In this document: one piece after another, positions 5,782-56,733 of the stretch
Layout: each line of letters begins with the position of its first letter
How positions within the stretch are numbered: the first letter of the stretch is position 1
Sequence record: NC_054918.1
DNA from: Escherichia phage vB_EcoM_G4498
DNA length: 64,000 nucleotides
Strand: one strand, 5' to 3'
Program-made: the position numbers and the translations under genes
The notes under the pieces: generated by a model
Databases searched by the model: none
What the model was told of the DNA's origin: nothing
What the model saw: the letters and a program-made list of their open reading frames with translations, nothing else

Positions 5782-5880
5782 TACAATTTCCTCGTTAATT
5801 GAACATTGGAGCGATGCGTTTCAGAAGAGTAGCAGCACCTTTGGCAAATTTTCCATTTTATTCTCCAAGTTATTTTCTGT

Positions 5881-5923
5881 ATCAGTAGTTGATATTGATA
5901 TAGTACCATAATCAACTACTGAT
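5881..5923. repeat. 13-bp perfect inverted repeat (atcagtagttgat / atcaactactgat) bracketing a promoter -10-like core
   Basis: Arms at 5881-5893 and 5911-5923 with a 17-nt spacer containing tatagtacca; lies in a 170-nt ORF-free gap. Confidence 0.6.
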
Positions 5924-5952
5924 GTATATAGTTTTATGAAAAATTTTAAACT

Positions 5953-14895: not shown

Positions 14896-14927
14896 TATTA
14901 TACCATACTCATTTTGGAAAGTAAACC
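14896..14927 (-). promoter_or_regulatory. early promoter
   Basis: Minus strand GTTTAC-N17-TGGTATAAT. Confidence 0.7.
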
Positions 14928-15242: not shown

Positions 15243-15250
15243 TATTTATA
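15243..15250 (-). promoter_or_regulatory. late promoter (TATAAATA) for soc
   Basis: Minus strand TATAAATA about 30 nt upstream of the soc ATG. Confidence 0.65.
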
Positions 15251-15280
15251 ATAAATTCTCGCGGCTTTTAAGACGAGCTG

Positions 15281-15799
15281 TTAATAACCTCGGTCTTGAC
15301 GAGCGAAATTTTCAGCATTTTTCAGATAATAAAGTTTAAAGATTTCTTCTGCTGTAAGACCAAGACCTTGAAACATGTTCAGAACAAAATGGAGAATATC
15401 AATCATTTCGAATTTGATTTCTAACTGGTCCTGTGGAGACAAATCAGTAATCAGAGTTTCACGACGTTCACCATGCTGAGCTTTCCACGGCTTCCATACA
15501 GCAGATGCATCTTTTTCGCCATTACTCATACCACCAAGAGAAGTCAGAAGTTCGCGGAATTCATCATCAATATAATCTTTCTGATTACGCAGCCAATCAA
15601 CAACTTCACCTGCAGTAGCCAAATCATCAGGATGACGGTTATATTCAGGTTTATCTTTAGCTAAACGAACTTGCAGAGATTTCTGCATATCAAGCATTAC
15701 CTGCAGCGGGTCTTTTTCATCACCGAGAATATCCCAATATTCATTTTGAGCTTTATCAGCGCCTTCGATCAGTTGACTACATTCGTTGAAATGTGGCAT
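15281..15799 (-). CDS. 56: dCTP pyrophosphatase (dCTPase/dUTPase, MazG-like)
   Basis: 172 aa; size and position of T4 gp56. Confidence 0.8.
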   Translation of the reverse strand: MPHFNECSQLIEGADKAQNEYWDILGDEKDPLQVMLDMQKSLQVRLAKDKPEYNRHPDDLATAGEVVDWLRNQKDYIDDEFRELLTSLGGMSNGEKDASAVWKPWKAQHGERRETLITDLSPQDQLEIKFEMIDILHFVLNMFQGLGLTAEEIFKLYYLKNAENFARQDRGY

Positions 15800-18892: not shown

Positions 18893-19147
18893 CTATTTTA
18901 TTTCCTCAAGTTCGTTAATCAATAAAAGTTCTCTGACGCTAAAAACAAAGAAAAATGTGTTCCCATCAACCAGAGCATGACCGCTAATAGAACACCCTCT
19001 GCGGAATTTAGAAACTTCACAATCTAGAACTGTAAAGGGTTTTAATCCTATGACTTTAGCTATGCGTCTATTCAGTTCACAACCACTTGCGAATTTTTCC
19101 AAATCTTCTTCTGATTTAAACTGATATTCTCTATTAACTAGCATCAT
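18893..19147 (-). CDS. small hypothetical protein
   Basis: 84-aa ORF downstream of an early promoter; SD GGAGA. Confidence 0.5.
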   Translation of the reverse strand: MMLVNREYQFKSEEDLEKFASGCELNRRIAKVIGLKPFTVLDCEVSKFRRGCSISGHALVDGNTFFFVFSVRELLLINELEEIK

Positions 19148-19177
19148 TTTCTTTTCTCCGCGATTAGCTGATAGAAT

Positions 19178-19210
19178 TACTATAACACAACTCTATCAGC
19201 TTGTAAACTA
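19178..19210 (-). promoter_or_regulatory. early promoter
   Basis: Minus strand GTTTAC-N17-GTGTTATAGTA. Confidence 0.55.
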
Positions 19211-19453
19211 CTATTTTACTAGCATCAATAACTGTTTCTCTAACTTGACGATTTTACGAAAGTATCTTTTGCATTGGCGAATCTGCCGCTTCGTAGGGCG
19301 CACAGCAAACTTAATAAATTCAACTCGACCAAATGGAGGACTTTCTTCTGCTGGAATATCTAACACCAATTCCCACGTATCTGCAATAAGTGCTTTGAAT
19401 TGAGTATTTTTCCTGACATTATACGGAGTAGGTTTAAATAAAACAATGTGCAT
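19211..19453 (-). CDS. small hypothetical protein
   Basis: ORF track gives 19211-19495 with a TTG start; ATG at 19453 with SD GAGGA, 1 nt after the dmd stop, is more plausible. Confidence 0.45.
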   Translation of the reverse strand: MHIVLFKPTPYNVRKNTQFKALIADTWELVLDIPAEESPPFGRVEFIKFAVRPTKRQIRQCKRYFRKIVKLEKQLLMLVK

Positions 19454-21501: not shown

Positions 21502-22657
21502 TTAACTGTTCGAGGTCAGTTTCTAAATCAGCAGCTGATTTACTTTTACTTTCTGGAGATTTAAATTTTTCAACCTTTGAGTTAATCAATTCATCAACTT
21601 CAGCTTCAACAATTTCATTGCTATCAATAGCACCTAACTGATAAGCACGTTTAATAGCATCTCGGAATGGTTGATGCTTAAATAAAGGACCCCAGAATGT
21701 AGTGCAGTTGGTATCTTTTGCACGCCAAGATTTTTCTTCGCGAATCATCTCACCGGTTTCTTCATCAAGAAATTCACGAGCATACCAACCGTTCTTAGGT
21801 TTTACCACGAATCCTAATTCTAGAGCCATATCTAACAATCCAGAATAAGGATCGATACCACCGTCAAATTTAACATCAATAAAGAATTTACTTTTTTCTT
21901 TAACGGTACGAGATTTTTCTACATTTAGAACAAATTGATACCCCTGAAGATCAGAACCATCTTTAATCTGGCGCTTACCGATAATGAATACGGTATCAGC
22001 TGAATACATTACGCCTGTACCACCTGTCATCACGGTTTTACTAAACATTTCAATTGTTTCAATTGTATGGTTAACCGCAACGCACGGAATATTTTTAATG
22101 CTAAAATAAGGAGTAACAATACGGAATAATGACTTCAGTGATTTAGCACGAGTCATATCTGCCACAGATTTTTCATTCAAGGCATCTTCCGTTTCTTTCT
22201 TAGAAGCCATATTACCGATTGAGTCGATGAATACAATAACCTTTTCACCACGCTCAATAGCTTCAAGCTGGTTCACCATATCAATTTTCAGTTGTTCAAC
22301 TGACTGAATCGGCGTATGAATTACTCGTTCCGGGTCAACTCCCATGGATCGCAAATAAGCTGGAGTAATACCAAATTCACTATCATAGAATAGACAAACC
22401 GCGTCAGGATATTTGTTCAAATATGCCGCAACCATAGTCAAAGACATATTTGATTTAAAGTGTTTAGAAGGCCCTGCGAAAATAGTTAAACCAGACTGCA
22501 TACCGCCATCAATCGCACCAGAAATAGCAATATTAAGCATTGGAATTTTTGTACGAATTACATCCTTTTCATTAAAGAATTTAGATGTAGTCAGTTCAGC
22601 AGTCATTTTAGAAGTGGAAGCTTTAATCAAACGGGATTTTAAATCTGCAATAGACAT
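21476..22657 (-). CDS. uvsX: UvsX RecA-like recombinase
   Basis: 393 aa; RecA-fold P-loop GPSKHFKS; size and position of T4 UvsX. Confidence 0.9.
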   Translation of the reverse strand: MSIADLKSRLIKASTSKMTAELTTSKFFNEKDVIRTKIPMLNIAISGAIDGGMQSGLTIFAGPSKHFKSNMSLTMVAAYLNKYPDAVCLFYDSEFGITPAYLRSMGVDPERVIHTPIQSVEQLKIDMVNQLEAIERGEKVIVFIDSIGNMASKKETEDALNEKSVADMTRAKSLKSLFRIVTPYFSIKNIPCVAVNHTIETIEMFSKTVMTGGTGVMYSADTVFIIGKRQIKDGSDLQGYQFVLNVEKSRTVKEKSKFFIDVKFDGGIDPYSGLLDMALELGFVVKPKNGWYAREFLDEETGEMIREEKSWRAKDTNCTTFWGPLFKHQPFRDAIKRAYQLGAIDSNEIVEAEVDELINSKVEKFKSPESKSKSAADLETDLEQLSDMEEFNE

Positions 22658-22735
22658 TCATTTTTTTCCATAGGCATCATTATATTTTCCTCACTGGTTA
22701 AAGATAGAGTAATTATAACACAATAAATTTAGGCA

Positions 22736-23578
22736 TTAATCAACTGCTATTGGATGAATAGCATTAAACTTATGAAATGCTTCTGATTTTTCTTTACGCG
22801 AAACGCACATGCGAAGAACCTTTAATGGCTCGTCTTCTTCACCCAACGATTTTCGTTTTTCAATATTAGAAGTTTTCCAACGAGCTTGCTCTGGAAACTC
22901 TCTATTGATTTGCTCAAGCGCTCTATTATGTTTAGAATTACTACGAATTGAACTGCACCCTCCAGGAGCTTGTGCTTTTCCAGATACAACCAGATATTTG
23001 AACAAGGCCAAATGCGGATAACCTTGATTAATTAAATTGAGAAATGCATACATATCTTCGCACAAATCAATTTTTCCATACCCAATTTGTTCTGTCGTAA
23101 GTTTTCCAAGGTCATACCATGTATTCGTGAATCCATATGAATTTTCACGATAATTACCCCAAGATGAAGTAATTTTAAAAATTGGTAGGCGAGCATGACC
23201 GTGATAATACCCACAATCCATGGCATCTTCGACGTATTGAATCAATTCATAGAACTGTTCACGAGTCAATTGATTGACTTTATCCACACAACGACGATCA
23301 TCTCTTTTTCGCATTGAACTCATACGAATAGTAGTATCATCGTCAATCATCCAGATTCGTTGACCTGCATACATATCAGTAATTGCTTTACGAGTACCGG
23401 CAATTCCATTAACATCATCAGGAATAGTTACAATTTTAGCTTTAGACCCATAGGCATCATAATAAGCTTTTTCTTCATGTTCACGTACTACGATATGAGG
23501 TTCATAATCAGTCGGAAACATATCAAGGGCAGAAACTGCCCCTACACGTTGATAGCTCGGAATTACGAATTGAATCAT
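22736..23578 (-). CDS. glycosyltransferase at the b-gt locus (GT-A-like, DxD); candidate b-glucosyl-HMC-a-glucosyltransferase
   Basis: 280 aa; WMIDDDTT DxD motif; unlike the 351-aa T4 b-gt. Confidence 0.55.
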   Translation of the reverse strand: MIQFVIPSYQRVGAVSALDMFPTDYEPHIVVREHEEKAYYDAYGSKAKIVTIPDDVNGIAGTRKAITDMYAGQRIWMIDDDTTIRMSSMRKRDDRRCVDKVNQLTREQFYELIQYVEDAMDCGYYHGHARLPIFKITSSWGNYRENSYGFTNTWYDLGKLTTEQIGYGKIDLCEDMYAFLNLINQGYPHLALFKYLVVSGKAQAPGGCSSIRSNSKHNRALEQINREFPEQARWKTSNIEKRKSLGEEDEPLKVLRMCVSRKEKSEAFHKFNAIHPIAVD

Positions 23579-24216
23579 TTAAGTGCCTTACATTTGTCAA
23601 AATGGTATCTTGTCATATTTGGCCCACGTCCTTTTAGTCCGCAATGCGGACATATTTTTTCTATCAAATTATGAGGTTTTCCTTTACGATTTTTAGACAT
23701 CGTTTCTTTAATTATTTTAGCTTTTTCTACGCCAAAAATTTCTTCATAAGTTTTACCAGAATTTTCCTTGGCTCGATTTATAATTCCATATGCCTGCTCA
23801 TTTTTACCATACATTGGATTACCTTCGCCTTTCATTCTTTTAGAATGATCAGGACGCTTGATTCCACGAAAGGCATTTCCGCACTTATATCTTTCTTCTG
23901 GAGATAGTTTTTTACCGTACATTCCATTTAATTTGCCTGGAAAACTTCCTCCCCATGCTTCATTCTTTAAATTATATGAATCCGGACAATTAGCAGCATC
24001 TAAACAAGTTAAAATAATTTCTTCAACCTGTCTAAACATTGGTCCTTCATATAATATTTCTTTATTAAAGGATTTTATTCCATATTTCTTTTTAGCATGT
24101 TGCCAAACTACACCCGAACCATCATAATTCGGGTTGTGACCATCATGACTTCCTATATACCACTTTTTAGTTTTAGGATGTTTATACTTATAAACATGCG
24201 GCACATTTACTTCCAT
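23575..24216 (-). CDS. GIY-YIG homing-endonuclease-like protein (Seg-like)
   Basis: 213 aa; N-terminal VYKYKHPKTKKWYIGS...YDGSG; NUMOD-like GKLNGMYGKK / GNPMYGK; C-terminal CPHCG...HFDKC zinc finger. Confidence 0.7.
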   Translation of the reverse strand: MEVNVPHVYKYKHPKTKKWYIGSHDGHNPNYDGSGVVWQHAKKKYGIKSFNKEILYEGPMFRQVEEIILTCLDAANCPDSYNLKNEAWGGSFPGKLNGMYGKKLSPEERYKCGNAFRGIKRPDHSKRMKGEGNPMYGKNEQAYGIINRAKENSGKTYEEIFGVEKAKIIKETMSKNRKGKPHNLIEKICPHCGLKGRGPNMTRYHFDKCKALK

Positions 24217-25359: not shown

Positions 25360-25740
25360 TCACTTAGTCAAATTTTTTACACATGAATTATAAGAATTCA
25401 CTACATACTCCATCGGAGCATTTTTACCAGTACGCCATTGGTAATTATTAGCCCAATTAGCCCAAATTTCGGCGCAGTAGTTTTCAATTTTTTCTTCGTG
25501 TGTAATTACATCAGAATTACGATATGCTTGAGCAGATTCATCTGGACGAATAGCTTCGTCAAAATTCGCCTGCATTTGTTCGACTGTTTGCTTTGGAGCT
25601 TCTTTATAACACTTGACATTAGGATTATAAAATTTGCTTGAACAGTTTACAATTTTTCCTGCATCAGACTGATTTACTACCGGTCCTTGAGCTACACAAC
25701 CAGTAAGACCTAATGCAATAACCAAAATAGCGATTTTCAT
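25360..25740 (-). CDS. lipoprotein
   Basis: 126 aa; signal peptide with lipobox LTGC. Confidence 0.55.
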   Translation of the reverse strand: MKIAILVIALGLTGCVAQGPVVNQSDAGKIVNCSSKFYNPNVKCYKEAPKQTVEQMQANFDEAIRPDESAQAYRNSDVITHEEKIENYCAEIWANWANNYQWRTGKNAPMEYVVNSYNSCVKNLTK

Positions 25741-25750
25741 AATAATTTCC

Positions 25751-25987
25751 TCAAATGCAAGTAGTAATTACTCCAGTAGTGCTTATGCAGGTATTACCCA
25801 TTTGCACACCTAAAGATCCATTTGTATTCACATGAAGATTATCATCAATTTTAACTGATATTTTACCATTAGTGTGAATAACAGTGCTAGATTCAATCAC
25901 AGGTTGAGTATCATTTTCAACACTAACAAATGGAACTGCTGCTAATGCAACTAAACAAACTGCTAAGCATCCCATAACAATTTTCAT
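25751..25987 (-). CDS. small secreted/membrane protein
   Basis: ORF track start 26044 lies inside the promoter; ATG at 25987 (MKIVMGCLAVCLVALAAV...) with SD GGAGAA is the likely start. Confidence 0.5.
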   Translation of the reverse strand: MKIVMGCLAVCLVALAAVPFVSVENDTQPVIESSTVIHTNGKISVKIDDNLHVNTNGSLGVQMGNTCISTTGVITTCI

Positions 25988-26022
25988 TTTATTCTCCAAA
26001 TCCGTATCAGTAGTTGATAGTT

Positions 26023-26056
26023 GTATAGTACCATGGAAGAACATTCTTGTAAACAG
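26023..26056 (-). promoter_or_regulatory. early promoter with conserved leader cassette
   Basis: Minus strand GTTTACA-N17-TGGTACTATACAACTATCAACTACTGATACGGATTTGGAGAATAAAATG. Confidence 0.65.
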
Positions 26057-26142
26057 TTTTGTGAAAATTTTTTAGGGAATTCTAAATGTCCAGAATCATC
26101 TGTTTTTCATAAGTATAGATTTATATTACTTGTATGAAAAAG

Positions 26143-26158
26143 GGACCCGGAGGTCCCT
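26143..26158 (-). terminator. terminator hairpin after gene 43
   Basis: GGGACC-cgga-GGTCCC followed by a U-run on the minus-strand transcript. Confidence 0.6.
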
Positions 26159-26170
26159 AGATTTATTCTA

Positions 26171-28867
26171 TCAGCCAAACAGGAAGTCTAACGAAGCTTT
26201 TTCTTCATAGTCCATACCAGCCGATTCACACATGCCCGCAAGCGGTTTAACAAACGATTTTTGGAACAAAGTTGAGTAGTCAATCCAAGACAGTACGTCA
26301 GAACGAATTTCTTTTGGAAGTTCTGTACCCGACGGCCAAGCAATGCATTTGTCACCAAATGGATTTCCTTCACGCAATGGAAGAACCATTACTTTATTTC
26401 CATCCAAAATTGGAGCTACACCTAAACCGCTAACAGCTCGACGATAAGTTAGCACACCACGAATATGGAACGGACATTTAAATCCTGGCCAACCTTTATC
26501 ATCATATTTCGCTATATCGTTCGCAGTTTTTACTTCAGCAATAACTTTATAGTCAAGTTGACGATATTCTTTCTCGAAGTTCTTGTAATATTCTTGGACA
26601 GACTCTTCACCTTCCTGAAGAATACGACGAATACTTTCTTCGAGAGCTTCTTGGACCGCTTTAGGCGTTGAACTTTGCTGAGTTTCCATACCCATGATTT
26701 TTAGATGCGGTTCAGCAAATCGCTTATCTTCCATATCATAAACGTTCAGAGCATAACGCTTTTTCGCTTTCCAAAATCCACCAACACCCTTTGAACCAAG
26801 TGGAGGGCAAGAAATAGCTTCACGGTCCATATGCATCAGATGCTCGCGGTTATTCATATAATCACATAACTCACGATATGCAACATCAATCATAGGTTCC
26901 ATCTTTTTCTTACCGAACTGATTCATGAATTCAACTAAATCGTTCTGCTCTTTGAATCGGTCAAGACCAACTTTTTCAATAACTTTATCTACACAAACAT
27001 ATACCGAATCAGTATCACCTGCTGCGATGAAATCTTCACCATTAGTTCCGCATACTTTATTCAGATATTCATTAATTTTACGAGCAATCCACTGAATACC
27101 GACTTGGCCGAAAATTGTGATAGCAGTAGCATTTCGCAGATCATAATAACGGAAATGAATATTACCAAGAGCACCATAAAGACTATTAATGAGAATTTTA
27201 CGGTTCAGCTGATTTGTGTTAGCAAGTGTAGCTGCTTTTTCACATTCTTCAATCAAACTATTGAGAACAGATTCAGTATAATTCGATAGTTCATTTAAGA
27301 AATCATCACTGAACTTAACATATCGTTCAACTTCAGGTTTAGTTGAACAAGACCCTGCGCCTTTCATAATAATCTTTTTAATAGCTTCGGCATTCATTTC
27401 TTCAGCGAACATTTTCTTTTTCCAATCTTTACGCTGGAAAAATACTTTAGCGATTTCCTTTGGAATGATACCTTCTTGATGCTTATCATACATCCATCCA
27501 TTCGGAGAACAAGAATATTCATCACTTGGTTTAGGAGCTGTTCCTGCGATATATTCATGAATTGGATGAACTTTAAACTGTCCACGAATAGTCTCAGGAC
27601 TAATGTTAACCTGACGAATAATGCTCGGATACAGAGACGTCAAGTCAAAACTCATAATATATCGACGAGCAATTGGTTTAGGTTCAAACACAAATGCACC
27701 CGGAAAACTCTGTTTAACGTGCGAACCTTGTTGAGGAATAACCTTGTGTTCACCTTTCAATGAGTTAAAAATAATAGCATCCCAAGTTTTAATAGGACTC
27801 ATTACACCAGAAAAAGGCATTTTAGCGTAATAAGACATACTTAAAACTAGATCGATAAACCCGCGAATTTTATCAATTGCTTGAACTGATTCTACGTCAA
27901 TGATGTTATAACTAATGTATCGTTGATGATTAGTCTCACGAAGTTTATTAATAGGACCGTCGTATGGTAATTTACCTTTTTTGGTTTCATGTTGAGCAAC
28001 TGATTCCAAAGAGAATGACGGCAAATTAGTAAAAGCGAATTTCTTGTACAAATCTAAATAATCAAGAATAGATACGCCATCAATAGAATAAATTTCTTTG
28101 CTACCGTACATATTTTGAATTAGTTTAGATTTTACTCGACCGATTGGAGAGAAGCGTTTCATACTGCGTTCACCTAGAATCATTTTAACACGATTCATGA
28201 TATACGGAACGTCAAACCCCTCAATATTCCAACCAGTAAAAATAGCAGGTCGTTTCTGTTCCCAGAGATTAATATATTCCATGAGCATATCACGCTCATT
28301 ATCGAATGGCATATAAATTACTCGGTCAAGAATTTCTTGAGGAACTTCATCACCACCTTCACAGTCAAGCTTAGCAGCTAACTTTGCATCCCATTTTGAT
28401 ACTGAACCGTACATTGAATTCAAAAGGTCGAAAACATAAAAACGGTCATCAATTGAATCGTAATGAGTGATAGCATCAATTTCATATTCAGCTTTCATTG
28501 GGTCAGGAAATTTATCACCAGTAACCTCAATGTCGCAGTTAGCTACACGAACAAATTTTCGGTCATAAACAATTTCTGAACCATACGTATCACTGATATA
28601 AGCGAGTTTAAAATCGTTCATACCGAGAGCTTCGAGACCGATGTCTTCCATTCGTTTCATCCAATCTCGAGCATCTTTCATTGATGGAAATTTTTGAGGA
28701 GCACAGTTTTTACCATAGATGTCTTTGTACTTTGACTCTTCCTTACAATGTCTAAACATAGTTGGAAGATATTCTACTTCACGAGTACGTTCCTTTCCGT
28801 TTTCATCAATATAACGTTCAACAATGTTATTTCCGACTGTTTCGATAGAGATATAAAATTCTTTCAT
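26171..28867 (-). CDS. 43: DNA polymerase (family B) with 3'-5' exonuclease
   Basis: 898 aa (T4 gp43 length); DIE exo motif (NCDIEVTG), DxxSLYPS, YGDTDS. Confidence 0.95.
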   Translation of the reverse strand: MKEFYISIETVGNNIVERYIDENGKERTREVEYLPTMFRHCKEESKYKDIYGKNCAPQKFPSMKDARDWMKRMEDIGLEALGMNDFKLAYISDTYGSEIVYDRKFVRVANCDIEVTGDKFPDPMKAEYEIDAITHYDSIDDRFYVFDLLNSMYGSVSKWDAKLAAKLDCEGGDEVPQEILDRVIYMPFDNERDMLMEYINLWEQKRPAIFTGWNIEGFDVPYIMNRVKMILGERSMKRFSPIGRVKSKLIQNMYGSKEIYSIDGVSILDYLDLYKKFAFTNLPSFSLESVAQHETKKGKLPYDGPINKLRETNHQRYISYNIIDVESVQAIDKIRGFIDLVLSMSYYAKMPFSGVMSPIKTWDAIIFNSLKGEHKVIPQQGSHVKQSFPGAFVFEPKPIARRYIMSFDLTSLYPSIIRQVNISPETIRGQFKVHPIHEYIAGTAPKPSDEYSCSPNGWMYDKHQEGIIPKEIAKVFFQRKDWKKKMFAEEMNAEAIKKIIMKGAGSCSTKPEVERYVKFSDDFLNELSNYTESVLNSLIEECEKAATLANTNQLNRKILINSLYGALGNIHFRYYDLRNATAITIFGQVGIQWIARKINEYLNKVCGTNGEDFIAAGDTDSVYVCVDKVIEKVGLDRFKEQNDLVEFMNQFGKKKMEPMIDVAYRELCDYMNNREHLMHMDREAISCPPLGSKGVGGFWKAKKRYALNVYDMEDKRFAEPHLKIMGMETQQSSTPKAVQEALEESIRRILQEGEESVQEYYKNFEKEYRQLDYKVIAEVKTANDIAKYDDKGWPGFKCPFHIRGVLTYRRAVSGLGVAPILDGNKVMVLPLREGNPFGDKCIAWPSGTELPKEIRSDVLSWIDYSTLFQKSFVKPLAGMCESAGMDYEEKASLDFLFG

Positions 28868-36315: not shown

Positions 36316-37515
36316 TTTTGTAATAATGTCAAACTGTTCTTTAAAACAGAAGCTTGAATCTTGGTGCTGATACAAAAATTCATATGCTTTTTCTCGCTCA
36401 CGGTCATAAAGAGCTCGGTCAGATGACAGTTCTTTAATACGTTCAAACGCTGATTCCATATCATTTTCATCAAACCAAATGATACCGCTATCATGCGAGG
36501 TCAAAGGAGTATTATCAACACGGAATTTTAAATTTTCGCCAGTAGATTTCCAAAATACCGGAATTGTTCCACATGCACCAAGCTCGAGATGAGTATATTC
36601 TAAAGAGCGCTGTAGATATTTTTTATCCAACTTACTCAACTGATAACCAAATCCGGATTTACTCATACGTTCAAGCATTTCGCTATTTACATAACGATCG
36701 AGAATTTGCGTTGGTAAATTAGGAGCAATTTTAATTTGGTCTACTTGATGAAGACGATAATACTCGTATGGAATTCCTTTTTCTTTAATAGGAATGAACG
36801 CTGGAGAACGTTCCAGACCTTCCATAATAGTACTTAGTCCTGCAGGTTTAAGATGTTTTTCGTGAAAATCAAACATCTGATAAAAACCTTTCCATGTAGT
36901 CGTACGACCAATCCAACGGTTGACATTCATGTTAATTTCAGAAACATCTTTCCAGTAGGTTGACCGAACCTTCGCAATATCCATAGGAGGCTGAAAGTTA
37001 TATACGGTCGGCGCTTCTTCAATATCATCAAACAGAGAAACAGTTTCTGGATACCATTCTTTCATCAGAACTTTATTAAAATCACCATTATCAGAATGGC
37101 TAAAAATAACATCAGCTCGACGAACAGTTTCTTCTAATCCCAAATTTCGACGCAAAGAAAGAGAAGAATGGTCATGTTGATAAACTACAACACGAACCGA
37201 AGGTTTAATGTTATCAATAATTTTTTTATAGTTATTAATAGTGTCTTCTTCAACTGAAGTAGCAGGAACTGAATTGATAATTAGAATATCACAATCATTT
37301 ACCAGCTTAAGTGTTTTATCGTATTCTTTTGCCAATAAAACCGGAATTGAAAATGATTTATAATCATGCGCACAGTTACGAGTAAATGATTTATCTTTGG
37401 CATAAACCAAAGTTACTTCATGACCATTTTTAATAAACCAATCACGTTGCTCGAGTGAGAATTTTGTTACACCACAACCTTCAAGACCTCGAGCCATAAA
37501 AATACATACTTTCAT
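36313..37515 (-). CDS. a-gt: DNA alpha-glucosyltransferase
   Basis: 400 aa (T4 a-gt length); N-terminus M-K/R-x-CIFMARGLEGCGVTKFSLEQRDWF as remembered. Confidence 0.85.
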   Translation of the reverse strand: MKVCIFMARGLEGCGVTKFSLEQRDWFIKNGHEVTLVYAKDKSFTRNCAHDYKSFSIPVLLAKEYDKTLKLVNDCDILIINSVPATSVEEDTINNYKKIIDNIKPSVRVVVYQHDHSSLSLRRNLGLEETVRRADVIFSHSDNGDFNKVLMKEWYPETVSLFDDIEEAPTVYNFQPPMDIAKVRSTYWKDVSEINMNVNRWIGRTTTWKGFYQMFDFHEKHLKPAGLSTIMEGLERSPAFIPIKEKGIPYEYYRLHQVDQIKIAPNLPTQILDRYVNSEMLERMSKSGFGYQLSKLDKKYLQRSLEYTHLELGACGTIPVFWKSTGENLKFRVDNTPLTSHDSGIIWFDENDMESAFERIKELSSDRALYDREREKAYEFLYQHQDSSFCFKEQFDIITK

Positions 37516-37527
37516 TTAATATCCTCT

Positions 37528-37556
37528 TTGTTTTGGTTTATTTTACCAAAAATTTA
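37528..37556 (-). promoter_or_regulatory. MotA-dependent middle promoter for a-gt
   Basis: Minus strand TGCTTTA - 11 bp - TAAAAT. Confidence 0.5.
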
Positions 37557-41556: not shown

Positions 41557-42027
41557 TTAATCATGTTTCCACACCCCATCGGTATTTGACCAAAGTCGCT
41601 GATTATCTGATCCTCGCCACAGCTTTTTAGTCGGAAGATTTTTCTCATACTTCCCATCAATAATAACATCAACATATTTAAGCATTTCTAGTTGTTTAAT
41701 ATCTTCAAACTTATATCCTGTCCACAACCAAATGCTTTTATTGGGATAAAGATTTTTTACTGTTTGAACAATGCAATGAATAACATCTCGATTGTCAGGA
41801 TAGAGAGGGTCTCCTCCAGTTATAGTTAATCCTTCTATATAATCATTATTCAAACATTCAATCAATTGTTCTAGTGTTTCACCAGTGAATGGAATACCAT
41901 TTCTAGCATTCCATGTTGATTTATTATAACACCCTTCACATTTATGCAAACAACCTGTAACGAAAAGAACGACCCTGCAACCAGGGCCATTCACAAAATC
42001 GCAAGGATAAAATCTATCATAATTCAT
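41557..42027 (-). CDS. nrdG: anaerobic ribonucleotide reductase activating protein (radical SAM)
   Basis: 156 aa; CxxxCxxC cluster (GCLHKCEGCYN). Confidence 0.85.
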   Translation of the reverse strand: MNYDRFYPCDFVNGPGCRVVLFVTGCLHKCEGCYNKSTWNARNGIPFTGETLEQLIECLNNDYIEGLTITGGDPLYPDNRDVIHCIVQTVKNLYPNKSIWLWTGYKFEDIKQLEMLKYVDVIIDGKYEKNLPTKKLWRGSDNQRLWSNTDGVWKHD

Positions 42028-43841
42028 TGGTGCTTAACCCTATGCATGATTTCTTTATTTTTACCGAGATTAAATCCGCGTTCGTTCGGATTTCCCAAAT
42101 AACCGCATGTTCTTCTTATGGTATTCATCTTTTTAGGATCAGTTTCTCCACAAATAGAACAAACAAATCCGTTTTCAGTAGGAATCATTTCATGGGTACT
42201 TCCGCATGTAAAACATTTATCTACTGGCATATTAACACCAAAATAATCTAAATGTTGTGCAGCATAATCCCATACAGCCTCAAGACCTTTTAGGTTATTT
42301 TTCATATCAGGAAGTTCAACATAAGAAATGTGACCACCTGTCGCAATGAAATGATATGGCGCTTCACGAGAAATCTTTTCAAACGGAGTAATATTTTCTT
42401 CTACTGAAACGTGGAAACTGTTAGTGTACCAGCCTTTATCGGTAACATCTTTTACACTTCCATATTTTTCTGTATCAAGTTTACAGAAGCGGTAACAAAG
42501 GTTTTCAGCAGGAGTCGAATATAAACTAAAAGCAAATCCGGTTCTTTCAGTCCACTGTTTAAGATGAGCATTCATTTTAGTTAAAATTTCTTGTCCAATA
42601 TCACGACCGACAAGAATATTCAATTCGTGAATACCAATGTATCCCAAAGACACTGAACTTCTGCCGTTTTTAAATAACTCAATTATATCGTCATCAGGTT
42701 TAAGACGAACCCCGAATGCACCTTCTTGGTAAAGAATAGGAGCAACAGTCGCTTTAACTCCTTTTAAGGAACTAATTCTACACATCAAAGCTTCAAAACA
42801 CAGATCCATTCGTTCATTAAATAGCTCAACAAATTTCTGCTCATTGAATTGAGTTCCAATATAAGAATCTAATGCGATGCGAGGAAGATTCAATGTTACA
42901 ACACCAAGATTATTACGTCCATCAAGAATTTCATTACCGGTTGAATCTTTCCACACACTCAAAAAACTGCGGCAACCCATTGGAGAAACAGGAATAGATG
43001 AACCGGTGATAGCTTTGTTATTCTTAGCCGAAATGATGTCAGGATACATTCTTTTGCTTGCACACTCTAAAGCAAGCTGTTTAATATCATAGTTAGGATC
43101 GTCTTTATAAAGATTAACACCTTCTTCAACGAACATAACAAGCTTAGGGAAAATAGGAGTTATCCCATCACGACCAAGACCTTTAATACGATTTTTCAGA
43201 ATTGCTTTCTGAATCATTCGTTCAGTCCAGTCAGTTCCTGTACCAAATGTAATTGTTACAAAAGGTGTTTGTCCGTTTGAACTAAAGAGAGTATTTACTT
43301 CATATTCATAAGCTTGGAATGCATCGTATACATCTTTTTCTGTTTTAGATTGAGCATAATTTAACGCATCAGCGATTTGCCATTTTTCTGCATCCTCAAT
43401 ATGTTTTGCATAGGTGCGTTTAACATAAGGAGAAAGTACTTTATCTACATTAGCAAAAGTCGTTCCGCCGTATTGATGGGAAGCAACCTGTGCAGTAATT
43501 TGTGCCATAATTGCAGTAGCAACACCGATTGATTTAGGAGTTTCAATCTGTGCATTACCAAGCTTAAATCCATTCTCAAGCATTCCTTTTAAATCTACTA
43601 AACAACAATTAGTAAATGGAAGAGCAGGGGAATAATCAATATCGTGGAAATGGATAATTCCGCTTTCATGCGCTTTCATAATAAAAGACGGGACCATATT
43701 TTTGGCAATGTGTTTAGACACAATACCAGCCATAAGGTCCCGTTGAGTTGGAAAAACACGAGAATCTTTATTAGCATTCTCATTCAAAAGGTCTTTATTA
43801 GTTTTATGAATCAATCCTTCAATTTCTTTTTCAATTGTCAT
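42024..43841 (-). CDS. nrdD: anaerobic ribonucleoside-triphosphate reductase (glycyl radical enzyme), uninterrupted
   Basis: 605 aa; C-terminal Zn ribbon CFTCG...CSICG and glycyl-radical motif RRTCGYLG. Confidence 0.9.
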   Translation of the reverse strand: MTIEKEIEGLIHKTNKDLLNENANKDSRVFPTQRDLMAGIVSKHIAKNMVPSFIMKAHESGIIHFHDIDYSPALPFTNCCLVDLKGMLENGFKLGNAQIETPKSIGVATAIMAQITAQVASHQYGGTTFANVDKVLSPYVKRTYAKHIEDAEKWQIADALNYAQSKTEKDVYDAFQAYEYEVNTLFSSNGQTPFVTITFGTGTDWTERMIQKAILKNRIKGLGRDGITPIFPKLVMFVEEGVNLYKDDPNYDIKQLALECASKRMYPDIISAKNNKAITGSSIPVSPMGCRSFLSVWKDSTGNEILDGRNNLGVVTLNLPRIALDSYIGTQFNEQKFVELFNERMDLCFEALMCRISSLKGVKATVAPILYQEGAFGVRLKPDDDIIELFKNGRSSVSLGYIGIHELNILVGRDIGQEILTKMNAHLKQWTERTGFAFSLYSTPAENLCYRFCKLDTEKYGSVKDVTDKGWYTNSFHVSVEENITPFEKISREAPYHFIATGGHISYVELPDMKNNLKGLEAVWDYAAQHLDYFGVNMPVDKCFTCGSTHEMIPTENGFVCSICGETDPKKMNTIRRTCGYLGNPNERGFNLGKNKEIMHRVKHQ

Positions 43842-50915: not shown

Positions 50916-51443
50916 TTATGCGAGTACCGTCTTTAACCGTTCTTCAAACTTCCGAAGAGTATTTTGGCGTTCAGCTCTTTGCTTTTTGTAAGTTTCAATA
51001 CGCTCTGAAATGAGAGTGTATCGTTCATTTACTGATTCTTTCATAAAATCAGGAATTTCACGAGAAGCTTTAATCTCGTCAAATTTATCAATAACAGCTT
51101 GCTCTTCAGCAATTAAGTTATCATACATCAAAATATCTTTCTTGATGAACTCAATATCTTCTTGAGTTACACGAGATAATTTAGATGCTTTATCCTTTTT
51201 GTACTGTTCGTTAGTATCACGAGACCAGTGTAATGTACGATTTTTATTCATATTCTTGTAAATTTCTACAATACCAATCTCATCGATAATAACGATCCAA
51301 TTCCAACGGGATTTGTAAATTTGTCCTCCATCAACAGTGATTTCACCTCCGATTGAGATGTCATTAAAGAACTTGCTTTGTGCTTCAGATTTAAATTTAC
51401 CATCATTGTAGTTTACCAAGTTGAAAATATCTTTAGCATTCAT
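50916..51443 (-). CDS. hypothetical protein
   Basis: Track start 51503 reads through the promoter; ATG at 51443 (MNAKDIFNLV...) with SD GGAGGA gives 175 aa. Confidence 0.55.
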   Translation of the reverse strand: MNAKDIFNLVNYNDGKFKSEAQSKFFNDISIGGEITVDGGQIYKSRWNWIVIIDEIGIVEIYKNMNKNRTLHWSRDTNEQYKKDKASKLSRVTQEDIEFIKKDILMYDNLIAEEQAVIDKFDEIKASREIPDFMKESVNERYTLISERIETYKKQRAERQNTLRKFEERLKTVLA

Positions 51444-51467
51444 TTTCTGTTCCTCCGTAGTTGATAG

Positions 51468-51503
51468 TTGTATAGTACCACAGAGGAACGGTCTTGTAAA
51501 CAA
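51468..51503 (-). promoter_or_regulatory. early promoter with conserved leader cassette
   Basis: Minus strand GTTTACA-N17-TGGTACTATACAACTATCAACTAC. Confidence 0.65.
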
Positions 51504-51818
51504 CTAAAAGAAACTTCTTTCACAATTTTTTCCACTGAACCACGCACTCACTGCTTTCTTAGTCTCAGGAGCAGTGTTATCCATAAACCATTCAAAGGCA
51601 GCCTTTTTATGATTCTGGAGGGCTTCTCGGGCTTTAATCTGCTCACGGTCTATTAACACTAACATATGAGCCTTTCTTGTCACCAGGGGCTTCTTATGAT
51701 TTTTTGAATACTCCCAATCATTTGTCCATCGCATCGTTGTTGCGAATTGAAGTACAGCTTCCTTAATCTTAGTTTCGTAAATTTCACGAGCCTTTGAGTA
51801 TAACATCACTACCTCCAT
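51504..51818 (-). CDS. hypothetical protein
   Basis: 104-aa ORF. Confidence 0.5.
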   Translation of the reverse strand: MEVVMLYSKAREIYETKIKEAVLQFATTMRWTNDWEYSKNHKKPLVTRKAHMLVLIDREQIKAREALQNHKKAAFEWFMDNTAPETKKAVSAWFSGKNCERSFF

Positions 51819-51907: not shown

Positions 51908-52876
51908 TTATTTCAGAAGAGTAACCTCAGCGATTTCTTCCCAACCGTTTTTGTCGGTCATAATAAAGTCAGCAAGATAAAGCGCAGTACGCAGTGAAAC
52001 ATTGCGTAAACGATTAACATTGACTTTCATCCATGATAATGCTTTATAAGTTTCTTCATCAGAAAGACCACGCTTTTGCATCATGTCAGTTGAAAGAATA
52101 ACATCTTCAACCCTGACCATAATTTCTTCATTAGTGTGAACACCCAAATCCAAATAAACTGAGCGGGACACTAATGCTTGTAAATGTGGAGCAAGTTTAG
52201 TACCACGGTCTAATTCGCGGTCAATGTCAACGTTTGTGATAAAAACAATCGTTCCTTTAAATTCAAACTCACGCTCAATGCCTTTTTCTTCTAAGTAAGA
52301 AGATGCAGTGCTCCAGCAGACTTTACGGGTCTCTCCAGTGTCCAGAGCAGCTTTCAGAAGATTAAGAATGTCCATATCAGAGAAAACATCCACATCATCA
52401 ATCAAAAGGACAGAATTCTCTTCACGATTATTCCAGAGCTGTTCATAAAGACCGATACCAGAGATTTTACCGTTAATGCTTTTATATTCAATGTATCCAA
52501 TATCATTTGCTTTATTTAAAGCTTTATCTAAAGAATACGTTTTACCAATGCCTGCTGCGCCAGAGATAATTAATGAACGAATGTTTCCGTTAATAATACC
52601 ATTCGTCATCATTCCCATAACATTAAATCTTTTATTAATACGGGTTTTCATATCTTCATATGATTCTTTAACTTCTTCAACTTTTACGCCATCATATGAA
52701 ATGTCTGATTTGTAAACCCAAACACCGCGACGTTTACCGTCAATTTCAACAAAAACTTTACCATCTCCTTGTGCATCTACCGGAGCATTATCAGGGAACC
52801 ACTCACCTAAGAGTTCAAAAGTTCCAGAGATTTCTTTACCGAAGTAGATACCCTTATTGATAGTTACAGTTTTCAT
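51908..52876 (-). CDS. P-loop (AAA-like) ATPase, function unknown
   Basis: Track start 52942 reads through the promoter; ATG at 52876 (MKTVTINKG...) gives 322 aa; Walker A GAAGIGKT, Walker B VLLIDDVD. Confidence 0.6.
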   Translation of the reverse strand: MKTVTINKGIYFGKEISGTFELLGEWFPDNAPVDAQGDGKVFVEIDGKRRGVWVYKSDISYDGVKVEEVKESYEDMKTRINKRFNVMGMMTNGIINGNIRSLIISGAAGIGKTYSLDKALNKANDIGYIEYKSINGKISGIGLYEQLWNNREENSVLLIDDVDVFSDMDILNLLKAALDTGETRKVCWSTASSYLEEKGIEREFEFKGTIVFITNVDIDRELDRGTKLAPHLQALVSRSVYLDLGVHTNEEIMVRVEDVILSTDMMQKRGLSDEETYKALSWMKVNVNRLRNVSLRTALYLADFIMTDKNGWEEIAEVTLLK

Positions 52877-52907
52877 TTTATTCTCCAAATCCGTATCAGT
52901 TGATAGT

Positions 52908-52942
52908 TGTATAGTACCATAAAGCTTTATGCTTGTAAACAA
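52908..52942 (-). promoter_or_regulatory. early promoter with conserved leader cassette
   Basis: Minus strand GTTTACA-N17-TGGTACTATACAACTATCAACTGATACGGATTTGGAGAATAAAATG. Confidence 0.65.
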
Positions 52943-52970
52943 CTTTGTGAAAAAATTTTGAAATAAAAAA

Positions 52971-52989
52971 GGGAGCCCGAAGGCTCCCT
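52971..52989 (-). terminator. rho-independent terminator
   Basis: GGGAGCC-uucg-GGCUCCC followed by UUUUUUAUUU on the minus-strand transcript. Confidence 0.7.
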
Positions 52990-54004: not shown

Positions 54005-54462
54005 TCAGCCTTATATTCAATAACAGGACATACTTTAGCTTTACGAGCTTTTAAAAATTCGACGATAATCGATTTCTTGGGTTGAATAGGAGGTAAACCT
54101 TTATACGCTCTATCAATATTTTCTACGTGTAAAGCATAATCCTTTTTCCATTTATAATCTTTATATTTTTCATGCAAATGTGCAGGAATAACAAATGAAC
54201 CGATAATAAGTAAAACAACCAAAAGCGCAAGTATAAATGCCGATGGAAGAAGAGTCCATAAACTACCGAAAATAAGCCAACGATGTAGGCTTTCTGCACA
54301 AATAATTGTTAGCCCTACGAGTATAGCACATCCAAAAATAGAAACGAAAAATGTAGGAATGGCAATAGACCAAAAATATGCGCATAGTGTCTTAGGTCGT
54401 TGCCATTCATCGTTAAACAATTTGAATAATTTATAATGCCAAGAGTTTTCATTAATAATCAT
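54001..54462 (-). CDS. integral membrane protein
   Basis: 153 aa with at least three hydrophobic helices. Confidence 0.55.
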   Translation of the reverse strand: MIINENSWHYKLFKLFNDEWQRPKTLCAYFWSIAIPTFFVSIFGCAILVGLTIICAESLHRWLIFGSLWTLLPSAFILALLVVLLIIGSFVIPAHLHEKYKDYKWKKDYALHVENIDRAYKGLPPIQPKKSIIVEFLKARKAKVCPVIEYKAE

Positions 54463-54464
54463 AA

Positions 54465-54986
54465 TTATCCTTTCATTGAAGGCGTAACAGTTGTTAAATA
54501 CTTAATCATAGCTTCAGCTTCTGATTTTGATAATGAAATTTCTCCATTGTTTTGACGAATAGAAATAAAATCCGGATGACGGTCACCACCAGCTTTTAAA
54601 ACACACATATAAGTATCAACTTCATCTTCAATATTTGAAATGATTGAAGCAGTTCCACATGAATGCGGTTTTTGATAAATCAATGCAGCCTTTCTTCCGC
54701 CATTTGACTGTTCATAAACTTTTAATACATCAAACAAATCACTTCTTTTATCAATAGCTAAAATGTTATTTTCATCTTCAATGTTAAATCCTTCGGATAC
54801 TTCATAAAGTGTCACCCATAAATCGCCAATATCAATAACAGCGTTCACTTTTCCATGATTTTCAAGAGCATGACAAATTTTCTTGATTTCGTCATAACTC
54901 ATTTTAATAATATCATCTCCTTGAATAAGAAAGATGTCATTTTTAAATTCAACACGAATTAAACCACTTCCACTTGAAATAAACAT
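54465..54986 (-). CDS. hypothetical protein (paralog pair, member 1)
   Basis: 173 aa; C-terminus ISLSKSEAEAMIKYLTTVTPSMKG. Confidence 0.5.
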   Translation of the reverse strand: MFISSGSGLIRVEFKNDIFLIQGDDIIKMSYDEIKKICHALENHGKVNAVIDIGDLWVTLYEVSEGFNIEDENNILAIDKRSDLFDVLKVYEQSNGGRKAALIYQKPHSCGTASIISNIEDEVDTYMCVLKAGGDRHPDFISIRQNNGEISLSKSEAEAMIKYLTTVTPSMKG

Positions 54987-56246: not shown

Positions 56247-56486
56247 TTAAACTCTCGTATTATGATCGATAATTTCATCAAGAAACATATCTAACGCTTC
56301 TACAGCATTATTAACTTTATCTTCAAGTTCTTCAATACTTTTATTTGCAATGCCTGACGAAAACCAAGCAAAGTCACTAAGTTCCTCGTCTGCTTTACGA
56401 ATTAAAGCTACTAATTCCTTAATTTTATCTGCTTGTTCGATACTAATCATTATTCCACCACATATGAAAGAGAGAATATTGCACAC
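56247..56486 (-). CDS. small hypothetical protein
   Basis: 79-aa ORF. Confidence 0.45.
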
Positions 56487-56638
56487 GCCATGTGAGTTGC
56501 AACTTCATCACACATATTATAACGTTTCTTAAGAAGTTCTACAAGTTCTTCACTAGTAACTTCATCCATGTCGACGAAAAAATCACCATTAATGATGACG
56601 TAGATATTTCCTTCTTGATTGAGTGCTTCAATTTTCAT
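56450..56638 (-). CDS. small hypothetical protein
   Basis: Track start 56683 reads through the promoter; ATG at 56638 with SD GAGGAG ([10 protein letters not shown]...) gives 62 aa. Confidence 0.45.
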
Positions 56639-56664
56639 GATGTTCTCCTCTTTATCCGATAGTT

Positions 56665-56698
56665 GTATAGTATCACAGCTCAAACGGAAAGTAAACCG
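56665..56698 (-). promoter_or_regulatory. early promoter with conserved leader cassette
   Basis: Minus strand GGTTTAC-N17-TGATACTATACAACTATCGGATAAAGAGGAGAACATC-ATG. Confidence 0.6.
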
Positions 56699-56712
56699 GT
56701 AAAATGAAAAAA

Positions 56713-56728
56713 GTCTCCCGAAGGAGAC
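56713..56728 (-). terminator. rho-independent terminator
   Basis: GTCTCC-cgaa-GGAGAC hairpin followed by a U-run on the minus-strand transcript. Confidence 0.65.
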
Positions 56729-56733
56729 TAATG

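Follow-up and report, generated by a model that had tools for sequence, protein, structure and literature searches.

Reused early promoter and leader modules ahead of unrelated genes in a T4-like phage

Five copies of a promoter and leader module

Downstream of gene 43 on the minus strand, an intrinsic terminator hairpin (26141–26158; AGGGACCTCCGGGTCCCT followed by a T-run) is succeeded by an early promoter with a long leader (25988–26054), which runs up to the ATG of a 78-aa ORF (25751–25987). The promoter, referred to as c1, has its -35 element GTTTACA at 26048–26054, approximately 85 nt from the hairpin, and TGG plus the -10 element TACTAT at 26025–26030. The 78-aa ORFan behind it belongs to phrog_4189 (E = 4e-30); neither T4 nor PST has it, and an unrelated 83-aa ORF takes its place in T2. 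Next on the same strand comes the imm.1 homologue (25360–25740), which has its own Shine-Dalgarno sequence, GAGGAAATTATTATG, and marks the right-hand edge of an exchangeable slot.

The window, that is, the whole 64,000-nt stretch analysed, belongs to Tequatrovirus. A 6-kb query around c1, covering beta-gt/42, imm, gene 43, regA and 62/44, is about 98% identical to hundreds of T4-like genomes, and T4 positions 12 to approximately 66,200 align collinearly with the entire window, T4 coordinates running about 1 kb above window coordinates near gene 43. The base composition of the window (approximately 34–35% GC) and its steadily negative GC skew fit transcription almost wholly from the minus strand.

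Modules related to c1 recur at the other positions listed for them in the initial annotation, and each of the five copies lies on the minus strand with an ATG at its 3' end. c2 (51444–51501) is an early promoter with the short leader ACGGAGGAACAGAAA, followed by nrdC.8 (50916–51443). c3 (52877–52940) has the long leader, with a 3-nt deletion relative to c1, followed by nrdC.10 (51908–52876). c4 (56639–56696) is a chimeric early promoter ahead of mobD.5 (56450–56638). c5 (5857–5929) combines the -35 sequence TATACA with a long leader, and the 11-codon stub behind it (5821–5856, minus strand) is a remnant of an 89-aa ORF (phrog_3720).

The repeat is far above chance: allowing at most three mismatches, the 17-mer GGTACTATACAACTATC has five matches in the 64-kb window, and 0.06 are expected. 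The copies had been described as a near-identical module of about 55 nt, and this description holds for the core only. Under the same mismatch limit, the 46-mer quoted for the module occurs once in the window, and its 3' part, GATACGGATTTGGAGAATAAAATG, is found in c1 and c3 only. In a segment-by-segment comparison from -35 to ATG, c1 and c3 are 85% identical, and every other pair reaches 58–76%. Common to c1–c4 are GTTTAC, TG(G/A)TACTAT and ACAACTATC, the last followed by AACT in c1–c3. By segment, these four copies agree at 6–7 of 7 positions in the -35 element, at 6 of 6 in TACTAT and at 11–15 of the next 15 nt, but at only 5–12 of 17 in the spacer, and their leaders are of differing types. 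The -35-proximal half and the leader of c4 are unlike those of the other copies, and in c5 TATACA replaces TTTACA and the core contains three mismatches. With the core shared and the spacers and leaders variable, we describe the set as a repeated core of approximately 23–30 nt inside a looser family.

Early promoters and the PeSL class

All five copies follow one anatomy, in which an A/T-rich upstream tract, GTTTAC, a 17-bp spacer, TGn and TACTAT are followed by GGAG and an ATG 22–37 nt further on. By the criteria of -35, spacer, TGn and a -10 of TAnnAT, c1–c4 are exact and c5 differs only by ATATAC at -35. The upstream tracts of c1, c3 and c5 are UP elements of the AAAAAATTTTCACAAAA type, and those of c2 and c4 are T-rich with a poorer fit. 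All five stand 5' of genes on the early-transcribed strand. A stringent scan of the window (a GTTTAC-like -35, TGn and a -10, then a Shine-Dalgarno sequence and an ATG within 60 nt) returned 15 promoters, all of them on the minus strand. Most of the other early promoters of the window match ACAACTATC at 2–9 of 15 positions, and only the promoter P18892 comes close, with 11 of 15. Because ACAACTATC is missing from most of them, the five copies constitute a sub-family.

Each copy has a positional orthologue in T4. That of c1 lies upstream of imm.1 (T4 27007–27099, at 27.06 kb), those of c2, c3 and c4 lie upstream of nrdC.8 (53.9 kb), nrdC.10 (55.4 kb) and mobD.5 (58.8 kb), and that of c5 lies between motB and cef (approximately 6.6 kb). 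The core occurs ten times in the whole T4 genome, and the non-orthologous copies stand ahead of ndd.6, motA, frd.3, e.8 and denV. One of these paralogues is the motA promoter, and the copy of the denB-ndd region (ndd.6) carries a promoter annotation with -35 and -10 signals in X75802, an older T4 record.

The early promoters of T4 (Pe) consist of UP, -35, TGn and -10 elements plus extra conserved positions (PMC2988021), and published promoter descriptions agree with the copies (PMC2988021, PMC4122927). The copies share the anatomy, the strand, the gene neighbourhoods and the presence of extra conserved positions with the T4 promoters; we notice no essential difference. The five copies have TACTAT rather than TATAAT at -10 and carry ACAACTATC in addition. 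Judged by sequence, the copies are T4-type sigma-70 early promoters joined to a 5' leader and a Shine-Dalgarno sequence. A limited literature search found no site-specific 5'-end or expression data for imm.1, nrdC.8, nrdC.10 or mobD.5.

The initial annotation had regarded the modules as promoter-early stem-loop (PeSL) cassettes, reused ahead of unrelated genes, and both the anatomy and the T4/PST consensus bear this out (PMC4122927). A study of 2010 described PeSLs for RB49 and phi1 (Arbiol et al., PMC2839356), and one of 2014 did so for the T4/PST pair (Comeau et al., PMC4122927), so such cassettes are already known; the feature is real and ordinary for the genus. The T4/PST form consists of TTTACW-N17-TAYWAT with an upstream stem-loop, a 3' Shine-Dalgarno sequence with ATG, and an association with indels (PMC4122927). 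c1–c4 match this consensus, c5 is one base off (TATACA), and the Shine-Dalgarno sequence and start codon of the downstream gene stand at the 3' end of all five. Like published PeSLs, the modules line up a terminator hairpin, an AT-rich region, an early promoter, a Shine-Dalgarno sequence and an ATG; they lie in hyperplastic early regions beside ORFans, some of them at indels or replacements, and in relatives tandem copies flank small ORFs. They differ in that c2 and c5 lack the upstream stem-loop, the -35 of c5 departs from the consensus by one base, and the hairpin of c1 lies some distance upstream rather than adjacent. By this layout, the complete architecture of published PeSLs is present in c1, c3 and c4, and c2 and c5 are classed as promoter-only.

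Two further records bear on how widely the module occurs. Salmonella phage STML-198 (NC_027344, 158 kb), which lies outside the close T4 group, contains at 89265–89311 a 47-nt stretch that matches the -10 and leader of c3 at 95.7%, and conservation of the c3-type leader may thus extend more widely. The record PV290051 (47 kb) was considered as a match in a phage not of T4 size and was discarded, being a partial Tequatrovirus record that shows the e.8 copy.

Stem-loops, leaders and gene starts

The stem-loop of a PeSL is a hairpin that serves as terminator or attenuator and lies upstream of both the AT-rich region and the promoter (PMC2839356, PMC4122927). GC-rich hairpins with T-runs are present upstream of c1, c3 and c4 only. 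Besides the one after gene 43, which is the PeSL-type stem-loop of c1, intrinsic terminators lie on the minus strand at 52970–52989, approximately 30 nt upstream of the c3 -35, and at 56712–56729, approximately 16 nt upstream of the c4 -35. No such upstream hairpin is found at c2 or c5; at c2 this is because the nrdC.9 ORF (51504–51818) ends directly upstream of the -35.

A different element, a short palindrome within the leader, had been put forward as the stem-loop of the module. This proposal fails. The palindrome, TATCA-N5-TGATA, is intact in c1 and c5 only among the five copies. Its occurrence there and in several T4 copies, together with a 5-bp hairpin of -1.9 kcal/mol predicted for the isolated 17-mer TATCAACTACTGATA, would favour a functional RNA stem-loop, the 'SL' of PeSL, acting for example as a stabiliser or regulatory hairpin. 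However, dinucleotide shuffles fold as well as the leader context (z = +0.5 and +0.09), the leaders of c2 and c4 are predicted to be unstructured, and the 3-nt deletion removes the hairpin from c3. The probable transcription start would also drop the first base of the stem, the stem-loop of the PeSL papers is a terminator that precedes the promoter, and Rfam at gathering thresholds found no family anywhere in the whole window (1–64000). We therefore consider a functional leader hairpin very unlikely and rejected it as a candidate element.

Within c5, we observe a perfect 13-bp inverted repeat, ATCAGTAGTTGAT / ATCAACTACTGAT, which straddles the -10 (minus strand, 5881–5923; arms 5911–5923 and 5881–5893). 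Its stability of approximately -20 kcal/mol would apply only in RNA reading through from motB, or as a DNA cruciform. The c5 module and this repeat are identical in T4, TB37 and RB51, and the repeat might be a separate regulatory or processing element.

The leaders divide by their Shine-Dalgarno regions. The strong intergenic consensus for RegB/S1 cleavage in the early translation-initiation regions of T4 is GG*AGRAYARAA (PMC3014915). Exact GGAGRAYARAA occurs three times in the 64 kb, against 0.31 expected, and the three matches are c1, c3 and c5, each with GGAGAATAAAA (11/11 positions; minus strand, 25987–25997, 52876–52886 and 5856–5866, respectively). At c1, the last A of this candidate RegB site is the A of the ATG. 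The leaders of c1, c3 and c5 are predicted to be essentially unstructured, and these candidate sites resemble known RegB/S1 sites also in lying in intergenic early Shine-Dalgarno regions. In contrast, c2 (GGAGGAACAGA) and c4 (GGAGAACATCA) depart from the consensus. Because the long form carries the strong RegB consensus, it may represent a very early, strong and quickly silenced expression unit. For messages from c1, c3 and c5, the prediction is cleavage and silencing within minutes, so that a burst of expression would be followed by an off state.

Immediately beyond the c1 start, codons 2–5 of the 78-aa ORF (minus strand, 25973–25984) read AAAAUUGUUAUG, which equals the first 12 nt of the RegA SELEX consensus of T4, aaAAUUGUUAUGUAA (PMC3014915). 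This 12-mer occurs once in the window, and 6 of 100 shuffles also yield one, so the evidence for a RegA site is weak; it hints at RegA repression or at an alternative start at Met5.

The same leaders mislead the ORF program. At c1–c4, the program ORFs extend upstream of the genes (25751–26044, 50916–51503, 51908–52942 and 56450–56683) and open with ..GTIQLSTT.. or ..DTIQLS.. ahead of the true Met. The joints between extension and start read MFFHGTIQLSTTDTDLENK-MKIV.. at c1, MFTRPFLCGTIQLSTTEEQK-MNAK.. at c2 and MFTSIKLYGTIQLSTDTDLENK-MKTV.. at c3. No extended ORF exists at c5, where only the 11-codon stub lies downstream. The view that the shared N-terminal sequence is an artefact of ORF calling thus stands for c1–c4 and does not apply to c5. 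Curated T4 genes start at the ATGs just past GGAG. From the position of TACTAT, we infer that transcription starts approximately 7 nt past it; the upstream in-frame start codons, which lie in the spacer, would then be outside the mRNA of that promoter, and the common 'peptide' would be an artefact. That the upstream stretch is truly translated, giving these proteins a common N-terminal extension, is almost certainly wrong: no stop codon interrupts the frame ahead of the ATG in c1–c4, but the candidate start codons within the promoter spacer have no Shine-Dalgarno sequence, GGAG stands 5–8 nt ahead of the downstream ATG, T4 and other annotated records begin at that ATG, indels and leader swaps among the copies break any single peptide, and terminators lie just upstream of c1, c3 and c4. 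For annotation, ORFs of T4-like phages that open with ..GTIQLST.. or a comparable stretch should be trimmed to the ATG past GGAG, and the sequence upstream should be assigned to an early promoter.

Gene exchange at the modules

Comparison across Tequatrovirus reveals three alleles at the gene 43/imm.1 site. In T4, PST and others, the module adjoins imm.1 and there is no cargo. In the window and many other genomes, the module with the c1 leader is followed by the 78-aa ORF and then by imm.1 with its own Shine-Dalgarno sequence. In T2 and RB68, the locus-specific UP element runs into a -35, spacer, core and leader of the c2 type, followed by the 83-aa ORF and the same imm.1 Shine-Dalgarno sequence; the left junction of T2 therefore falls inside the module. 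The T4 allele looks like the result of a deletion between two ATGAAAAT gene starts. A search for the T2 83-aa ORF at other loci found it at gene 43/imm.1 only, which documents allelic replacement at a fixed slot and not hopping between loci. Mobility of the cargo between loci was accordingly set aside.

Junctions are also resolved to the base at c3 and c5. At c3, a two-ORF insertion in CM8 begins after ACTATCAA of the module and a one-ORF insertion in G50 begins directly after GTTTACA; at the far end of each insertion stands a second, related promoter with its leader, in front of nrdC.10. An insertion of T6 near c3 is a seg endonuclease unrelated to the modules. At c5, the 89-aa ORF is intact after an identical module in TB37 and RB51, and the window and T4 share a frame-breaking deletion of 208 bp that begins 8 nt past the ATG, which explains the 11-codon stub. 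The surroundings of c4 are collinear in about 497 of 501 genomes; among the matches listed, neither an indel at c2 nor a genome with a deletion from c2 to c3 was seen. The expectation that cassettes coincide with breakpoints in gene content is thus borne out to the base for c1, c3 and c5 in other Tequatroviruses, and no such association is seen for c2 and c4. The six cargo proteins belong to six different PHROGs of unknown function.

Comparison of further copies also points to relatedness by recombination. The frd.3 and nrdC.10 copies are identical through the terminator tail, UP element, -35, spacer (AAGCATAAAGCTTTAT) and core, and diverge past ACTATC. Spacers are not expected to be constrained in sequence, so their likeness between paralogues speaks for relatedness over mere convergence. 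From -14, across the leader and as far as 12 nt into the imm.1 coding sequence (ATGAAAATCGCT), the ndd.6 copy is identical to that of imm.1. The ndd.6 copy, downstream of denB (T4 166996–167064), contains an 8-codon ORF, MKIAEIEL, whose stop overlaps the ATG of ndd.6 (ATGA). The arrangement resembles a fossil left by ectopic recombination, and the small ORF is possibly a coupling leader peptide. c4 is itself a mosaic, in which the terminator and the GTTTACTTTCC half are as in the promoter at 14897–14926 and are joined to a -10 and an initial transcribed sequence like those of the module, with a different leader. Relatives in IMG/VR carry the exact 21-nt core ahead of further genes, with six copies in one genome; in one IMG/VR copy, spacer and leader are exactly those of the c2 type and an unrelated gene follows, and tandem core copies flank a small ORF.

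The resemblance of c4 (56667–56729, minus strand) to the promoter at 14897–14926 on the same strand can be followed in detail: the two have a near-identical terminator tail and -35 half (CTCCTTCGGGAG..TTTTTTCATTTxAxCGGTTTACTTTCC), and their -10 and leader halves differ. This pattern suggests that a second promoter sub-family exists and that the sub-families are mosaic with respect to each other.

Taken with the promoter anatomy, these comparisons lead us to propose that the five copies are very probably a paralogous sub-family of T4-type immediate-early promoters with leaders, which also act as homology patches for recombination. The expression unit would comprise an optional upstream terminator, an A/T-rich UP element, GTTTAC, a 17-bp spacer, TGn, TACTAT, ACAACTATC(AACTAC), GGAG and ATG. 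Host sigma-70 RNA polymerase would fire from the modules immediately after infection, and the long-leader messages of c1, c3 and c5 would be cut at the RegB/S1 site within minutes, so that a burst is followed by shut-off. Because the copies share 25–70 nt, they could serve as patches of homology at which small ORFans are inserted, deleted or swapped by general or microhomology recombination, as in the published PeSL model. Small accessory genes are exchanged at points that these conserved cassettes of early promoter and leader mark and probably help to create, and the three-allele slot at gene 43/imm.1, the nrdC.10 insertions of CM8 and G50 and the ndd.6 fossil supply base-resolution examples for this published idea.

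A rather unlikely alternative is that the similarity reflects selection for function only, namely promoter strength, the initial transcribed sequence and the RegB site. The modules would then have no causal role in gene shuffling, and would coincide with indels as both are confined to intergenic DNA. Comparison of flanking gene content with related phages had been suggested as a check, and the comparison with T4 is on the side of this alternative. The window and T4 are separated by 19 gaps, equal to 38 breakpoints. Early-promoter cassettes lie at 2 of the 38 breakpoints, with approximately 1.2 expected under a uniform null and approximately 1.5 under a non-coding null, and with a fuller promoter list a promoter lies within 130 nt of 2 of the 19 gaps. 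An association of the cassettes with differences from T4 thus comes out at about chance, and we rejected enrichment of breakpoints at early promoters. The stability of c2 and c4 across the genus and the extra conserved positions of T4 early promoters beyond -35 and -10 (PMC2988021) point the same way. Indels in a compact genome occur mostly between genes, as do promoters, and the co-location could be partly passive. However, selection alone would hardly account for paralogues that are identical in the spacer, for 12 nt of imm.1 coding sequence at ndd.6, for the T2 junction at which a locus-specific UP element meets a c2-type core and leader, for the CM8 and G50 junctions inside c3, or for the chimeric c4. 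The role of the modules as homology patches is supported by these base-level examples and not by enrichment statistics.

We also considered a stronger form of the homology-patch reading, in which the long-form module (promoter, ACAACTATCAACTAC and perfect RegB site) is a portable burst-then-off unit, spread by ectopic gene conversion and preferred by ORFans as a landing pad, so that genes are captured as in an integron without an integrase. This remains speculative, and we hold it to be improbable. If it were true, the frequency of exchange at module sites would be measurably above that at other intergenic sites. The modules resemble integron cassettes in offering small promoter-adjacent slots where unrelated genes insert and become expressed. 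They differ in that neither an integrase nor a fixed crossover point is present here, and in that the module cassettes bring or reuse a promoter, whereas integron cassettes are promoterless behind a common Pc. Capture by a dedicated site-specific recombinase is highly improbable: cargo ORFans do insert precisely beside the modules, and Arbiol et al. raised a helper protein as a possibility (PMC2839356), but no recombinase is linked to the modules and the junctions differ: that of T2 lies in the -35/spacer region, G50 has it directly behind GTTTACA and CM8 behind ACTATCAA, and those of T4 and c5 are at or just past the ATG. Such variation from case to case argues for general or microhomology recombination rather than a site-specific system.

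Besides the three-allele slot, the useful outputs of the comparison are the corrected gene starts and the observation on the RegB sites. Its reach has a limit, since homing endonucleases and promoter-independent indels make up most of the differences from T4 in the 64-kb window. Of the 19 differences, at least 7 are due to homing-endonuclease genes of T4. Those absent or replaced here are mobA, segF, segA, mobB, mobC, the I-TevII nrdD intron and mobD, at gaps of about 2782–2847, 15250–15281, 22645–24215, 37506–37531, 42007–42027, 43303–43306 and 54005–54968.

Elsewhere in the window, a 329-bp insertion relative to T4 (18893–19230, minus strand) consists of an early promoter, a leader and an ORF of approximately 84 aa, and is self-contained. 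Its promoter (19179–19208) has the -10 sequence TATAGT, and its leader reads ..CTATCA..GGAGAAAAGAAAATG. The stop codon of the ORF adjoins the -35 of the resident promoter of the sp homologue.
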